From a virus (lineage: Duplodnaviria > Caudoviricetes), in IMG/VR virus record IMGVR_UViG_3300030392_002118, positions 1 through 50,624 of that record: a stretch of 50,624 nucleotides of DNA, one strand, 5' to 3'. The position numbers and the translations under genes were made by a program. The notes below the pieces were generated by a model that saw nothing but the letters and a program-made list of their open reading frames with translations, ran no database searches and had not been told where the DNA came from. Numbering within the stretch: position 1 is the stretch's first letter; every line of letters begins with the position of its first letter. Shown piece after piece: positions 6,040 through 47,687 of this stretch.

Positions 6040-6046
6040 TTTTCAA

Positions 6047-6222
6047 ACGTTTCAACACATTAACTAAACTATTAAAAATGAAGAATTTAAATTAAAAAAA
6101 AGGTGTTGAAAGGGTGTTGAAACGGTTTGAAAGTGTTTGAAGTTGTTTTGAAGTTCAAACCGTTTCAACACAAATAAAGAATTAATTAACTGAATATCAA
6201 CGGTGTAGATGTGTTGAAACGT
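6047..6222. repeat. Iteron-like array A (GTGTTGAAACG / CGTTTCAACAC), probable replication origin
   Basis: Copies at 6048, 6103 (variant), 6114, 6161, 6211; outer 14-bp IR and inner 18-bp IR; directly after the primase-helicase. Confidence 0.7.
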
Positions 6223-9312: not shown

Positions 9313-9448
9313 AAAGCAGAAAATTTTGGATAACGGGAACCCATCCCATAGTGGGTGGGTATCTCTCCAGCGGCGGTTCTACATCAAACTCAAAGCAGTT
9401 TCACGAGCGCCATTTAAAAATGAAAGTTAAACCTGAAAAAAAGTGGTT

Positions 9449-10045
9449 ATGAAAATAAAACCAATATTATTTAGTACGCCGATGGTTCAAGCCATTTTAG
9501 ACGGACGAAAAACGCAGACCAGGAGAATTGTAAAAGATAGTATGCTGCAAGAAAATGAAAATGAATTTAAAGAAGAGGAATTTCTGAAGGCAACAATAAA
9601 AAAACCTATAAATAAAGGCGACATCCTTTGGGTTCGGGAAACTTGGTTCCCTACAAGGTATGATTTTAAAGAACTTTTACAATCAGGAATCACTTCATTA
9701 TCAAAAGGAAATATTATAAAATACAAAGCTGATAATGATTATGACCCAATAAAAGACTGCGTGGGAAGATCTTGGAAACCCTCCATCTTTATGCCCAAAG
9801 AAGCCTGCCGTATTTTCTTGGAAGTTGTAGATGTTCGCGTGGAGCGGTTGCAGGATATTTCTGAAAGTGACGCAATTGCTGAAGGAATTAATCCAACAAG
9901 CGGTGTAGTAAGTGCTAATCACGCAAAGAATTGTTTTCAATCTTTATGGCAAATGATCAATGGAACTCAATCTTGGCACGATAACCCCTGGGTTTGGGTG
10001 TATGAATTTAAGCAAGTTGAAAAACCAAAAAACTTTTTAAAATGA
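9449..10045 (+). CDS. ASCH/PUA-like conserved phage protein
   Basis: KPILFSTPMVQAILDGRKTQTRR...GDILWVRETW...WKPSIFMP...NPWVWVYEF. Confidence 0.8.
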   Translation: MKIKPILFSTPMVQAILDGRKTQTRRIVKDSMLQENENEFKEEEFLKATIKKPINKGDILWVRETWFPTRYDFKELLQSGITSLSKGNIIKYKADNDYDPIKDCVGRSWKPSIFMPKEACRIFLEVVDVRVERLQDISESDAIAEGINPTSGVVSANHAKNCFQSLWQMINGTQSWHDNPWVWVYEFKQVEKPKNFLK

Positions 10046-10161
10046 CAGAACTAGAAAAAACATACCGGAACATAGGCTTTATAAAAGGTCTGGCTATTGG
10101 TTTCGCCCTGGGCGCCGCCTTTGTATGTGCCCTATTTTATTTTAACCCTTTAAATTTTTAA
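10042..10161 (+). CDS. 39-aa single-TM peptide (not in the ORF track)
   Basis: MTELEKTYRNIGFIKGLAIGFALGAAFVCALFYFNPLNF; ATGA overlap. Confidence 0.55.
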   Translation: MTELEKTYRNIGFIKGLAIGFALGAAFVCALFYFNPLNF

Positions 10162-10495
10162 TAACGATAAAGTATAACAAAAGTTAATGGTATGAAAATG
10201 ACAGACCAATGGGGAGTTCCCTTAACATCTTTAGAATTACAGAGATTTCTAAAGTATATAGATAATAATAGATTGGCGCCAAATACAATGACAAAGGAAG
10301 CAAGAATACAACTTGTTTGGGATTGGAAGAAATTAAATTAATTTTTGTTATACCGTGTTGTGTGTAGTGCTTAATGTAGATTTATGTAAAAATTTACAAT
10401 AAGGAATTTGCTATTATACTTTTATTACCTTTTTTGCATTACGCACAACACCAAGCTAAACGCCGTTTTAATGGCGCTTTAGCAACTGTTATCAA
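10158..10495 (+). repeat. Two attC-like imperfect palindromes
   Basis: AAC...GTT outer ends with inner L-like IRs; detailed in findings. Confidence 0.55.
10192..10341 (+). CDS. 49-aa hypothetical protein enclosed by a 17-bp inverted repeat
   Basis: MKMTDQWGVPL...WDWKKLN; bounded by IR arms 10172-10188 and 10337-10353. Confidence 0.5.
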   Translation: MKMTDQWGVPLTSLELQRFLKYIDNNRLAPNTMTKEARIQLVWDWKKLN

Positions 10496-10504
10496 TACCC
10501 AACC

Positions 10505-10540
10505 AAAAATCCCTGCAATATTCCCCTGCAGGGATTTTTT
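10505..10540. terminator. Bidirectional intrinsic terminator ending the early operon
   Basis: AAAAATCCCTGCA / TGCAGGGATTTTT perfect 13-bp stem between convergent genes. Confidence 0.85.
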
Positions 10541-10576
10541 ATTTTTAAATACGCGCCGTATGGCCAGCGAGCGGCC

Positions 10577-10768
10577 CTAATTGTTTCTCCAGGCATAAAT
10601 ATACTCTTCCGGAAGCAGGCGTTCGGCAATGGGATAAAATCCCTTTCCCGGTATCCAGTCTGCTTTACATATACGGTCCTGCCCGACTGTAGTTTTAATC
10701 TTTACCTCATAAATACCCTTGCCCTTCGGCTGGGCATCCTCAAGGTCTATAAAGTCCGTTTCTTCCAT
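10577..10768 (-). CDS. Small antisense-oriented hypothetical protein (moron-like)
   Basis: 63-aa ORF with its own -7 box TATTTTTG (10795-10802, minus) and the terminator at 10505. Confidence 0.7.
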   Translation of the reverse strand: MEETDFIDLEDAQPKGKGIYEVKIKTTVGQDRICKADWIPGKGFYPIAERLLPEEYIYAWRNN

Positions 10769-10883
10769 TTTATAATGCGGTTTTGGTTACATATCAAAAA
10801 TACTAAAAAAGCCACTCCCGCCCCCACGTGGCCACCTCTTGTTTTTCCCCTTTTCCCCCAATTCATTCAAAGGTCAAAAAAAA

Positions 10884-11098
10884 CTGTAATTCTGTAATAA
10901 ATCACGACAAACCCCGAAAACACTAAGAAAAAAGATTACAGAATTATATTCAAACTGTAATTTCAATTACAAAAAAACTGTAACTACTATTGGGGATTAC
11001 AGAATTGCAAATTTCACTTTCAATAAGATTACAAAATGATTGTAAGCTTCAAAACCCTATAAAATCTACTATTAGCATCTTTAATTACAGAATTACAG
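10884..11098. repeat. Iteron-like array B (CTGTAAT / ATTACAG)
   Basis: Perfect 15-bp IR CTGTAATTCTGTAAT (10884-10898) / ATTACAGAATTACAG (11084-11098) enclosing at least 6 internal copies. Confidence 0.7.
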
Positions 11099-11127
11099 AA
11101 TTTTTCGGAGTTTTGGCAGTTATGTCG

Positions 11128-11181
11128 TATAAGTCAATCTTAACCCTGTCATTGACTTATAAGTCAATTTTACTATCTTTA
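11128..11181 (+). promoter_or_regulatory. Promoter with an 18-bp palindromic operator
   Basis: ATTGACTTATAAGTCAAT 11151-11168, extra half-site 11128-11138, -7-like TATCTTTA 11174-11181. Confidence 0.6.
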
Positions 11182-11197
11182 CCCAAACATACCTGCT

Positions 11198-11698
11198 ATG
11201 GATCTGCTCCAAAAACCTACACTCTTTCAAAACGTCTGCGAGATTCAGCTTGCCACACAGGCCGTTATCAAGCCAGCGCCGTTTGGTAGCCTGCAGCCTT
11301 TTAGCAATACGTATGTAGATACCACTACTGCCGTGCCGGTGCATTTTGGCCGTAGCTCCGTAGCCTTGGCGCAGGAAGGAAAATCCACCATAGCCGGAAT
11401 GCTCTATGAACAGCAGCTAAAACTGCGCTTCCCAAACAGCGACCTATTGCAGAGCGCGCGCATCCAGGAATACCAAAAAGTAAAATTTGTGTATGTAAAA
11501 ATGAGCGATGGGCTGGTATTCTTCTTAGGAAGAAACGACTATTTCCAAAATGCGCCAATTGTTTCAGAAATAAAGAATACCCCCAACATTGTAGAAATAA
11601 CCTACAAAACAACTTCCATTTTTCCGATTGGCCTTACCAATGGCGCTGCAGATCATTTATTGGGAGAAGATATTCCTATTAACTTTTTCAATCTATAA
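11198..11698 (+). CDS. Hypothetical virion-associated protein
   Basis: First gene of the tail-fibre-like block; beta-rich. Confidence 0.6.
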   Translation: MDLLQKPTLFQNVCEIQLATQAVIKPAPFGSLQPFSNTYVDTTTAVPVHFGRSSVALAQEGKSTIAGMLYEQQLKLRFPNSDLLQSARIQEYQKVKFVYVKMSDGLVFFLGRNDYFQNAPIVSEIKNTPNIVEITYKTTSIFPIGLTNGAADHLLGEDIPINFFNL

Positions 11699-11701
11699 AA
11701 A

Positions 11702-44695: not shown

Positions 44696-46511
44696 TTTTC
44701 AGCTAAATCTCGTTGACACTTCTTTCACCATGGTAGAGGAGAATAATTGGTTTAGCGACAAGCTGTTTTCAAAATACACCTACACTATAAGTAAAACACT
44801 TACAGATGAGGAGGATGCGGCCTTCCGGTTCATCACACAAAATTCATCCAGAAATGTACAGACCATAATGGATGTAAGATTTTGCGTTCTGGACATGGAG
44901 CATGAAGCGGTAATGGAAATTGAAAAGATTAAGGGCCGTAAAATCGAGTTTCAAATTAGATATGGCTTTGAGGAATTTCCAAATTTTGAAAAAAAATTAT
45001 CACAGCTCCCGCTCCACAAGTTTCCGCTTGTGGGAGAAACCATATTTCAACACGCGGCGGCTAAGATAGCTTTTTCCTATCCTGCCACCGATTATAATTT
45101 TCCCAGGATATTTACAGATCAGTTTGATAAAGAGTCGCCACAATGGCAAGCCTTTGAAGGCTCTGTGAATAACTATGACGGTAGCGCATTCTTAGAAAAT
45201 GAATACGATGTAGTGGAAGATATGCAGCTTAACCGGAATATTATGCAGCCATTGCCCAGCCTGCTCTATGTTTTGAAAACCGGATTTGCCGATAAAGGCT
45301 ACACCTTGGCCGGTGATATTCTTGAAGATCCAGAGTTTAAGGAAGCTTGGCTTTATTCCCTGAGTCAATTTTACAGCACAATTGCACCCGATGGCAAACA
45401 AGAAATGCTTGTGAAGACAGATGAGCACATAGAATATATAGATGGATTTGGAAGATACGAGCGCGAGCTTGAAATAACAGAACCGGGCAGATACGCTGTA
45501 AAGGGAAATCTGTTCATTAGAAGTGAGGGAACCCATTCCTTTCAAGCGTTTGGTAAAATATTTTACAAAGGGCAGCAAGTTGCCTTTGCACAGGTAGAGC
45601 AGGGGGAATACTTTCTGATGGTTGATTTGGTACTGGAGCTTTTCCCGGGACAGGGGCCAGAAATGCTCCAGTTTCAATCCGTGCAGCTGCCCTATCAGCA
45701 CTCCGGGGGCGGGATAATTTATGATGCCACTATTTTGGACATCACTATTTCGCAACTTACTAAGTATAATCCTGACGGCACGGCCACGCCTACTTTAGTG
45801 CTGCCAAACGAAATAGACCTAACTCAGTGTGTGCCTGACATTACCTTTGGAGAGCTTTACAAAGCCGTGAAGCTTTGGAAAAATTATAGCATATCCATAA
45901 CTGGCGATACCGTAAAGATTGATCTAGTAAAGAACCTAATAGGAAGAGGCACGCCGATAGATTTGAGCCACAAGGAAGTAAGGGAGCCAGAACGTACCTT
46001 TAACCAAGGCAAAACCTTTGAGCTTAAATTCACCGAAATAGATTCAGATGTATATAAATACCCTTCCGTTTATGTGAATTCAAACGGCGTAACACAGACT
46101 CCTTATGTGCCCAAGGAAGGCACGGAGGAAATTATTATAGACGCTGTACCGCTTCCACTTAAGTCGGAAGACGGGGTGGTGACGGCCCACGGTTTTATTG
46201 ATGATAATCAAAAACTACAATTAGTGCTTTACGCCGGACTCACTTCTGGAATGAACATCGCTAAAGATACTAGTCAGCTTTATATACAGGCAATCTATCA
46301 GAATTATTATAAAGATTGGATTGACTTTCTTTTAAAAACACAGGGTTATATATGGACATTTTCAGACGTTGAAATCAACGTACGAGATCTTAATGTGTAC
46401 TCTACTATATATGCTTACGGCATCTATCACGCTGTAGTAAGCCTGAGGAAAAAGAATACTGGAACGGATGATAATATTGATATGGAGATTGAAACCTACT
46501 CACTTGAATAA
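44670..46511 (+). CDS. Tail hub/baseplate-like protein
   Basis: 613 aa; last structural gene; YPATDYNFP, VPDITFGEL blocks. Confidence 0.6.
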   Translation: MNLQIIHSDFQLNLVDTSFTMVEENNWFSDKLFSKYTYTISKTLTDEEDAAFRFITQNSSRNVQTIMDVRFCVLDMEHEAVMEIEKIKGRKIEFQIRYGFEEFPNFEKKLSQLPLHKFPLVGETIFQHAAAKIAFSYPATDYNFPRIFTDQFDKESPQWQAFEGSVNNYDGSAFLENEYDVVEDMQLNRNIMQPLPSLLYVLKTGFADKGYTLAGDILEDPEFKEAWLYSLSQFYSTIAPDGKQEMLVKTDEHIEYIDGFGRYERELEITEPGRYAVKGNLFIRSEGTHSFQAFGKIFYKGQQVAFAQVEQGEYFLMVDLVLELFPGQGPEMLQFQSVQLPYQHSGGGIIYDATILDITISQLTKYNPDGTATPTLVLPNEIDLTQCVPDITFGELYKAVKLWKNYSISITGDTVKIDLVKNLIGRGTPIDLSHKEVREPERTFNQGKTFELKFTEIDSDVYKYPSVYVNSNGVTQTPYVPKEGTEEIIIDAVPLPLKSEDGVVTAHGFIDDNQKLQLVLYAGLTSGMNIAKDTSQLYIQAIYQNYYKDWIDFLLKTQGYIWTFSDVEINVRDLNVYSTIYAYGIYHAVVSLRKKNTGTDDNIDMEIETYSLE

Positions 46512-47687
46512 CTTGTCTATAATAAAAACCTTTTCGTTTACTTCGCTTTCCACAATGTGTACATAGATCATTGTTTGCTTTATGCTGCTATGACCCAAAA
46601 GGTTTTGAAGCGAGACAACATCACCGCCAGCTCTTAGGAAGTTGGTGGCGAATGTATGCCTGCCAACGTGAAATGAAATTTTCTTTGATATCCCACAGGT
46701 TCCGGCAATTATTTTTATTTGCCGGTTCATATAGATAGGATCTTTCTTTTCAATGAAAAGCCCATCACAATAAGAAAGTAGTGTCCTGGTACTTTCGTTT
46801 ATGTTTCTACGCTGCATTCTATCTTTTTTCTTTTCAAAATATTCAAAAAAACCTTCATCAAATTGACTGCGATGGATTGACAACACTTCGGAAACACGAA
46901 GCCCAGTAAAACAAGAAAAAAGAAAGTAGCCAAGCACTAGGCGGTTCTGGTCATTTATGAAGCTACTTTTATAATATTCATACAGGCGGTTTACCTCAGA
47001 TGGTTTGAGGTCCGTTCTGTTGCCCGTGGTACTGCCTACCTTAATATCATCAACATCAATTGGCAATAAAATCCCGTGTTTTTTTGCGGCATTTAAAAAC
47101 TTTTTTAGTGTTGCAATATTGCTTTCAACAGTAGTTTTATTATTTCCTAGCTTATTCATCCACTGCCGGAAGTTCAAGATAAATTTTTGGTCAAGTTCTG
47201 TGAAGTAAATGGTTTTCTTCCAGCGTTTCCATTTTTCCAGCATATAATACTGCTTTTCATAGGTGCCTTTCGCGAGCTGTCCTTTTTGTTTTTGAAGGAA
47301 CCAATCTGCGAATGCAAAAAAATTGATTCGTGGAATGCCATTTATAAATTCTTCAGTAAGGGAATCTACGTCCAATTTTTTATTGGCCAGTCGATATGTT
47401 GTTTTAATGGAAGTGATTTTACTCTGCAGGTTATCAATAATTAGATTGAGATCCTTTGAGTGGCCATCGGTAGTCTTTAGTCTTTGCTCTTTCGGGCAAA
47501 AATCTTTCACCCTAACATATATATCCAGGGGAATTCTATTTCGCTGTTGATTACCGGTAATGTGTAGATAAAGAAGTGAAAGGCCTTCCTTATTTTGATA
47601 ACTGCGTGGAATGAATTTAGTTTTTACTGACACAAACAATTTCTTTGTGTCAACTCTTGTGTCAAAAATAGCTTCGGAAGTAACCAT
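46500..47687 (-). CDS. int: Tyrosine integrase (Bacteroidota arm-binding + SAM-like + catalytic)
   Basis: FTGLRVSE, HVGRHTFAT, LLGHSSIKQTMIY; adjacent to att. Confidence 0.95.
   Translation of the reverse strand: MVTSEAIFDTRVDTKKLFVSVKTKFIPRSYQNKEGLSLLYLHITGNQQRNRIPLDIYVRVKDFCPKEQRLKTTDGHSKDLNLIIDNLQSKITSIKTTYRLANKKLDVDSLTEEFINGIPRINFFAFADWFLQKQKGQLAKGTYEKQYYMLEKWKRWKKTIYFTELDQKFILNFRQWMNKLGNNKTTVESNIATLKKFLNAAKKHGILLPIDVDDIKVGSTTGNRTDLKPSEVNRLYEYYKSSFINDQNRLVLGYFLFSCFTGLRVSEVLSIHRSQFDEGFFEYFEKKKDRMQRRNINESTRTLLSYCDGLFIEKKDPIYMNRQIKIIAGTCGISKKISFHVGRHTFATNFLRAGGDVVSLQNLLGHSSIKQTMIYVHIVESEVNEKVFIIDKLFK

Follow-up and report, generated by a model that had tools for sequence, protein, structure and literature searches.

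Positions 10165-10448 of the stretch analysed here (its full 50,624 nucleotides are called the window) are very probably a 284-bp integron-type cassette, which brings its own site of an attC-like family (site 1) and was inserted at the AA|C point of a second, much shorter hairpin (site 2), presumably by a Xer-like enzyme of the host. The window is a complete IMG/VR virus record (50.6 kb) and represents a temperate phage with a Flavobacteriaceae host. Its early genes, which include a DnaG-type primase, a C5 methyltransferase and small genes, lie on the + strand, and the cassette locus is found at the 3' end of this early block, followed by a terminator-like hairpin (10505-10539) and a convergent 63-aa ORF. 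The features concerned are these:

10042-10161, + strand: 39-aa backbone ORF, kept in relatives L003, L032 and L074
10154-10165, + strand: AAC box flanking site 1, ending TTAATAAC; originally the 5' box of site 2
10165-10448, + strand: probable 284-bp integron-type cassette, made up of site 1 and an 85-nt tail
10172-10188, + strand: 5' arm of the inner (L) stem of site 1, complementary to 10337-53 at 16 of 17 positions
10192-10341, + strand (the folding strand): 49-aa ORF in the loop of site 1, with 86% amino-acid identity in L161
10337-10370, + strand: 3' arm of the L stem (10337-53), 3-nt spacer and GTT box (10357-70)
10371-10435, + strand: AT-rich 65-nt cassette tail with no ORF and one promoter-like match (10393-10420)
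10436-10449, + strand: cassette end, the AAC box now beside site 2, complementary to 10357-70 at 12 of 14 positions
10450-10495, + strand: site 2, a short attC-type hairpin, 72 bits with model R1 and a single copy in the window
10505-10539, no strand assigned: 13-bp perfect hairpin with A and T runs at both sides, outside the cassette
46500-47687, - strand: prophage integrase adjoining tRNA-Arg, of arm-binding phage-integrase architecture and not of the cassette-array type

The segment is absent from close relatives of the phage in a very precise manner. In Logan contigs of runs X3 and X4 (two runs of one study that is separate from the putative source sample, compared as contigs rather than raw reads), 9800-10162 with 7 differences is joined straight to 10447-10556 with 0 differences; the junction skips exactly 284 nt, with a 3-nt ambiguity (AAC), and the phage is otherwise 98-100% identical. 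The segment 10165-10448 is present in runs X1 and X2, possibly the source sample. A more distant relative, L003, aligns over 9400-10165 as far as ...TAAC and then from 10447 onward (ACCAAGC...), with ~281-284 nt absent. The empty alleles retain site 2 and are without site 1 and the next 85 nt, and their sequence runs from ...TTAATAAC directly into the ACCAAGC of site 2. Because the empty form joins these two, TTAATAAC is identified as the original partner of GTTATCAA, the GTT box of site 2, to which it is complementary at 7 of 8 positions. In an unrelated phage, L161, the unit 10165-10448 stands behind another gene and before other DNA, ends in ...GCACAAC and has no site 2 beside it; this copy holds the stem arms with the identical G:T wobble, the 49-aa ORF and a partly conserved tail. 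From the empty alleles and the L161 copy together, we conclude that the mobile unit is 10165-10448 and that it was inserted into site 2, with the crossover at AA|C on the + strand, between 10164 and 10165 on the left and between 10448 and 10449 on the right. BLAST of 9400-11700 against isolate phages gave no match, shorter queries later giving three phages, and a scan of the genome collection with the 166-aa neighbour protein returned one Aequorivita MAG, in which the hairpin is absent.

Site 2 runs from a flanking CACAAC (10444-49) through a spacer (ACCAA), a stem (10455-64 / 10473-83) that carries a bulged C at 10477 and closes on an 8-nt loop (GTTTTAAT), and a second spacer (AACT) to its GTT box, GTTATCAA (10488-95). 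It belongs to a short hairpin family described by model R1 (AAC, 5 nt, GCTAA plus variable stem, GTTTYAAT loop, stem plus TTAGC, 4 nt, GTTAT). The metagenome pattern scan behind this model, which fixed 18 bases of the family, returned 117 loci, of which 12 had a real hairpin and the other 105 were dropped as chance matches; the family as it stands comprises 13 distinct contexts. Four pairs of the inner stem show compensatory changes and 92% of cells are paired, as compared with 26-44% in slid controls, and the G:T pairs of the family favour folding of the + strand. There is one R1 copy in each related phage, and matches were found in 5 of 151 Flavobacteriaceae genomes. In three independent sets, otherwise similar loci lose homology just 5' of the AAC. 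The bulged C of site 2 is absent from L032 and most relatives, and a search for a downstream partner box of site 2 found none, the 8-mer not being enriched. Among the R1 matches, four of 34-40 bits (L157-L160, in genomes G043, G055, G066 and G122) are a variant hairpin, GATAA...TTATC followed by GTTAAACGAAG, located in single-copy chromosomal intergenic regions that have a conserved downstream stretch in common.

Site 1 has an outer stem (AAC...GTT) separated by an unpaired spacer from a 17-bp inner stem, and a loop of 148 nt; its relatives are chromosomal, and it would be unusually long for a member of their family. When the 284-bp unit was compared by BLAST with 401 Flavobacteriaceae genomes, 18 matched, nearly all at window positions 10335-10380, and these matches are the 3' ends of folded repeats of about 130-140 nt. 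The layout of these repeats, captured in model R2, is an AAC box, a 5-6 nt spacer, a GTATA... stem, a ~80-nt loop, a ...TATAC stem, a 3-nt spacer and a GTTGTG box. They fold as predicted: across 16 chromosomal sites, 98% of cells in the 16-bp inner helix are paired and compensatory changes are seen at 7 pairs, and two conserved G:U positions in it mark the folding strand. Site 1 shares this layout, its 3' half by profile and its 5' half by pairing and spacing. An nhmmer profile of the 3' half of the chromosomal family matched 10340-10368 with E = 1.2e-5, the only significant match in the window, and R2 as a whole scored site 1 at 23 bits (E = 0.006). The corresponding profile search for the 5' half gave nothing at 10154-10190, and this half fits the family only by the 16/17 pairing and an AAC 6 nt upstream. 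L161 keeps the 5' arm of the L stem, G:T wobble included, and Tenacibaculum phage JQ has a near-identical arm. The cassette end at 10436-10449 also resembles the canonical chromosomal box, ATTACACACAAC.

The outer AAC...GTT stem, unpaired spacer, inner stem and variable loop that make up the layout of an attC are found in site 1, in site 2 and in the chromosomal relatives. Canonical attC sites measure ~57-141 bp, and both sites in the window lie outside this range, site 1 at ~213 nt (10158-10370, with its 148-nt loop) and site 2 at 52 nt from its TTAATAAC-equivalent to GTTATCAA. The 49-aa ORF in the loop of site 1 differs between the window and L161 by 5, 1 and 12 nucleotides at the first, second and third codon positions, which argues that it is a real gene; it has only 4 similar protein clusters in a large database and gave no protein family match. 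The window as a whole contains 21 inverted repeats of 15 nt or longer within 400 nt, the 17-nt repeat among them, and the single-strand fold of 10150-10500 has z = -3.4, which none of 100 shuffles equalled. Octamers of the TTAATAAC/GTTATCAA type are not enriched in the window (76 vs 60 ± 8.7 in shuffles), so that the boxes alone prove nothing and the case is one of structure and comparison. On the inverted repeat, the fold z-score and the compensatory changes in both families, the structures of sites 1 and 2 are not due to chance.

R2 repeats are widespread in the host family, occurring in 123 of the 151 sampled Flavobacteriaceae genomes (E <= 1e-8, with 21 candidates scored per genome) and reaching at least 54, 47, 32, 5 and 65 copies in five genomes. 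In four genomes (G232, G166, G118 and G297), arrays of same-orientation ORFs and repeats start beside a tyrosine recombinase gene of 376-411 aa. The array of G232 consists of an ORF and then a repeat at least 15 times over, the folding strand being opposite to the ORFs. The repeats were noted in genome G384 as well, and there are further scattered clusters of them beyond the arrays. The Flavobacteriaceae arrays look like a family-wide integron-like system.

In integron arrays it is the neighbouring cassette that supplies the outer part of a site's box, and a GTT box should therefore complement the AAC box of the site that follows. Over 23 consecutive pairs (14 of them in G232, 9 in three phages, with some mis-parsed or interrupted pairs retained), the mean was 6.35 Watson-Crick pairs of 9, as compared with 3.35 of 9 for the box of the same site and 3.25 ± 0.36 for random pairing, which was never as high in 5000 trials. 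The pair in the window (10360-68 vs 10438-46) has 7 of 9 plus two G:T. In a repeat search the complementarity of 10357-70 to 10436-49 extends to 14 of 16 over 10355-70 / 10436-51; because these ends pair, a circular cassette would restore the outer stem of site 1. A second cassette of 295 bp, with a short hairpin and a 60-aa ORF, is 100% identical in two phage arrays (L161:2680-2974 and L162:2684-2978). The identical block extends from AAC to ACAACG, beyond which not one more base is identical in either direction; its flanks are unrelated, and its ends pair 8/8 if circularised; the identity indicates a probable recent transfer. The crossover thus falls inside the AAC/GTT triplet, as it does in attC sites, at the empty junction, at the bounds of the 295-bp block and in the swapped-end comparison.

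Isolate phages carry such sites as well. Tenacibaculum phage JQ has five R2 matches on one strand, Winogradskyella phage Peternella_1 has four (best 92 bits), and Maribacter phage Panino has an R1 match of 56 bits. Short (~60 nt) and long (~140 nt) phage sites form one series, the GTTTYAAT loop being common to the short ones, which R2 also scores. One site of JQ (L197 ~2089-2545) has inner arms nearly as in site 1 and ~390 nt in its loop, where two ORFs of 64 and 49 aa are annotated, neither of them related to the 49-aa ORF of the window. The site is in register with the rest of its array, its AAC box being complementary to the preceding GTT box at 11 of 12 positions. Cargo inside the loop is thus a recurring arrangement.

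The orientation of the phage sites is less readily accommodated. In the phages (L195, L197, L161 and L162) the folding, G:T-tolerant strand is the coding strand, and in the chromosomal array G232:C1:2888865-2903118 it is the opposite one; this reversed polarity counts against the cassette model. It bears on an explanation that we consider unlikely, in which the hairpins act at the RNA level in the early transcript of the phage, as terminators, processing sites or protein-binding sites, and the variable genes are swapped by ordinary homologous recombination between the conserved hairpin sequences, an exchange of the kind proposed for T4-type promoter-stem-loop cassettes. In its favour, the wobble-tolerant strand of the phage sites is the mRNA strand, the short sites have the conserved apical loop GTTTYAAT, and the sites are placed between co-directional ORFs. 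However, the two partners, long site 1 and short site 2, have little beyond AAC in common, the breakpoints are fixed at AA|C, the swapped-end rule holds, and the chromosomal members fold on the non-coding strand and adjoin a recombinase gene. The hairpins may nonetheless have a dual role as RNA element and recombination site.

That the locus records the insertion of a cassette had been proposed in a first-pass annotation of the same DNA, in which the direction of the event was the reverse: a cassette of 131 bp without an ORF (10358-10488), to which site 2 would belong, was taken to have entered a resident site 1 at G|TT. We regard this as very unlikely. The box swaps are formally symmetric, the 7/8 match of TTAATAAC and GTTATCAA and the 12/14 match of 10357-70 and 10436-49 being compatible with either direction, but the empty alleles keep site 2 and are without site 1 and its tail, L161 has site 1 and the tail with no site 2, and the conserved G:T wobbles make + the folding strand and thus place the cut at AA|C on that strand rather than at G|TT. 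The 131-bp proposal is therefore the mirror image of the 284-bp insertion into site 2 that we favour. Much else in that annotation was borne out. Its motifs and match counts are all present (TTAATAAC at 10158-65, the 16/17 repeat, GTT at 10357 and GTTATCAA at 10488-95), and TTAATAAC and GTTATCAA, which it had paired by their 7/8 complementarity, are original partners according to the empty allele. Its attC-like sites with integron-type insertion logic correspond to families with covariation and to precise empty junctions, and the swapped outer ends and the 49-aa ORF lying within the 16/17 inverted repeat were correctly read. It had also suggested comparing related phages for indels at the box points and looking for similar repeats elsewhere; L003 and X3/X4 break exactly at those points, and the repeats are those found in most of the sampled Flavobacteriaceae genomes.

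A non-autonomous IS200/IS605-like single-strand transposon, which enters on the 3' side of a short target and does not duplicate it, would likewise give a unit with ...AAC both just before it and at its own 3' end, as is the case here. It is nevertheless highly improbable, as no Y1 transposase is present among the ten neighbouring proteins scanned, the unit has no subterminal local hairpins, and the arrays are tied to a tyrosine recombinase and follow the rule of swapped ends. A combination of chance palindromes in AT-rich intergenic sequence with microhomology-mediated deletion would fit the lack of enrichment of the 8-mer boxes, but can hardly be credited in view of the covariation in both families, the profile match at E = 1.2e-5, the recurrence of the unit in L161 and the 100% identical cassette in two arrays.

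As regards the enzyme that would have inserted the 284-bp cassette, the sole tyrosine recombinase of the record is the prophage integrase (46500-47687), which reaches 56 bits with TIGR02249, where the cut-off is 265, in agreement with the earlier view that the prophage has no IntI. Homologues of the array recombinase were found in 0 of 3 phage records (the window, L003 and L032). Because the prophage is without an integron-type integrase, a trans-acting, presumably host, recombinase is implied, as had been surmised. The host flank beyond tRNA-Arg is 98% identical to genome G040, and this host-like genome encodes a 384-aa homologue with 45% identity to the array recombinase and contains at least 10 R2 repeats, many of them at contig ends; no R2 site was found in the 3.3 kb surrounding its recombinase gene.

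The array recombinase itself passes the threshold of NF040815 (238.6 bits vs a cut-off of 220) and falls below that of TIGR02249 (203 bits vs 265), where its match is split at model positions 178/240. In place of the 66-residue region that contains the IntI-specific domain in VchIntIA, the enzyme has 24 residues; the window holds no candidate for an IntI. Conserved extrahelical bases are seen in neither site family, the 16-bp helix of the 16 chromosomal sites being continuous, and the strand asymmetry of the sites resides in G:T wobbles and unequal spacers. With no IntI insert and no conserved bulged bases, the system departs from canonical integrons in two defining features and cannot be counted among them. 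The IntI-specific domain reads the bulged bases of attC, and the absence of the one would be coherent with the absence of the other.

The events may be pictured as follows. A 284-bp circular cassette, the presumed intermediate, with ...CACAA joined to CGATAAAG... at the circle junction, would fold on its + strand and recombine at AA|C with the folded resident site 2 by single-strand site-specific recombination. The + strand would be the one folded and cut, and insertion would leave the outer box ends swapped. The enzyme would act in trans, the array-associated Xer-like tyrosine recombinase of the host being the best candidate, and recombination could take place during lysogeny or replication.

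Several known systems resemble this one in part. T4-type mobile promoter-stem-loop cassettes likewise comprise small accessory phage genes that have conserved stem-loops beside them and are located in a hyperplastic region; their exchange is thought to run on sequence homology, whereas here there is a fixed AA|C crossover between sites unlike in length and sequence. The Flavobacteriaceae arrays share with sedentary chromosomal integrons, such as those of Vibrio with their species-specific attC repeats, the one-orientation succession of ORFs and repeats beside a tyrosine recombinase and the homogeneous folded repeats with AAC...GTT boxes, unpaired spacer, second stem and swapped ends. Unlike those integrons, they have a recombinase without the IntI insert and an inner stem without conserved bulged bases, and the array follows the recombinase gene on its 3' side, in the same orientation. 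End to end and with no IntI gap, the array recombinase can be aligned with the archaeal XerA type (NCBIfam NF040815; PDB 4a8e, 5hxy), from which it differs by an extra N-terminal region of ~110 aa and by adjoining cassette arrays instead of a dif site.

Phage-borne attC clusters (CALINs) and integron fragments have been published, including a Polaribacter phage (Qi et al. 2023, PMC9892861). In the portion of that report considered here, as in our case, attC-type sites and cassettes were found in phages without an integron integrase, and access to a cassette pool was proposed. Within the same portion, our observations differ in resting on comparative evidence and purpose-built models instead of IntegronFinder, and in the occupied/empty polymorphism, the short docking hairpin, the ORF in the loop and the Xer-like host recombinase. 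A CALIN is defined by two or more attC sites on a replicon that has no integron integrase near them; the region 10154-10495 contains two Flavobacteriaceae-type sites with no such integrase, found by models of our own and not by the program that defines a CALIN. From the sections consulted, the report on IntegronFinder 2.0 gives In0 elements as the only earlier finds in Bacteroidetes and adds one complete integron, in Salinibacter ruber, and two preprints, likewise represented by excerpts, disagree on whether integrons are present in Bacteroidetes. A partial literature search turned up no published account of cassette arrays in Flavobacteriaceae that go together with a Xer-like recombinase. Against this literature, as far as it was covered, what is new here is the occupied/empty pair, the short docking hairpin family, the gene in the loop, the reversed polarity and the link to the array system.

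It is possible, although we put it forward with some reserve, that these elements together constitute a distinct integron-like lineage spanning the family, characterised by a Xer-like recombinase without the insert, hairpins without bulges, reversed phage arrays and genes in loops, and in which the early regions of phages serve as platforms serviced by the host. The phage cassette uses the same folded sites as the chromosomes of the host family, and phages thus appear to share the bacterial gene-cassette pool. Near-identical phages with and without one cassette form a natural before-and-after pair, in which integron-style recombination seems to reshape a marine phage genome, and the locus links the phage to a repeat family that is present in most of the sampled host-family genomes and whose recombinase is not a canonical IntI. 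If the host enzyme does act on phage DNA, accessory genes of phages and bacterial cassettes would make up one exchangeable pool, a site could hold cargo in its own loop, and tools keyed to canonical integron features would under-count such systems. Cultured phage-host pairs exist for the three isolate phages JQ, Peternella_1 and Panino.

The slot occupied by the cassette also has alleles that the cassette logic does not explain. In L032 (2829-3233, with an ORF of ~134 aa) and L074 (386-721 as oriented, with a 111-aa ORF), the ORF directly adjoins the 39-aa ORF on one side and an intact TTGATAAC box on the other and has no site of its own. On the left side of the slot, the stop codon and 3' end of the 39-aa ORF form the outer part of the left AAC box. 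To the right, the hairpin at 10505-10539 looks like a bidirectional terminator that closes the operon; Rfam returned only tRNAs and terminator-like noise (gathering threshold on the window, permissive threshold on 10100-10620), and the weak matches at this hairpin under the permissive threshold were all terminator-like. A further mosaic boundary follows, L003 and the X3/X4 contigs diverging right after 10556 and the similarity of L003 returning at 10694.

Other features were noted elsewhere in the phage. At 10877-11105, between the 63-aa minus-strand ORF and the next + genes, repeated CTGTAATTCTGTAAT-type motifs occur in both orientations and look like operator repeats. A tRNA-Trp gene lies within the phage at 23484-23557. 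At 6040-6171, 3' of the primase gene, an 18-19-nt motif (TTCAAAC..GTTTCAACAC) is present three times in the orientations +, - and +, and two of the three copies pair as a perfect 18-bp hairpin.
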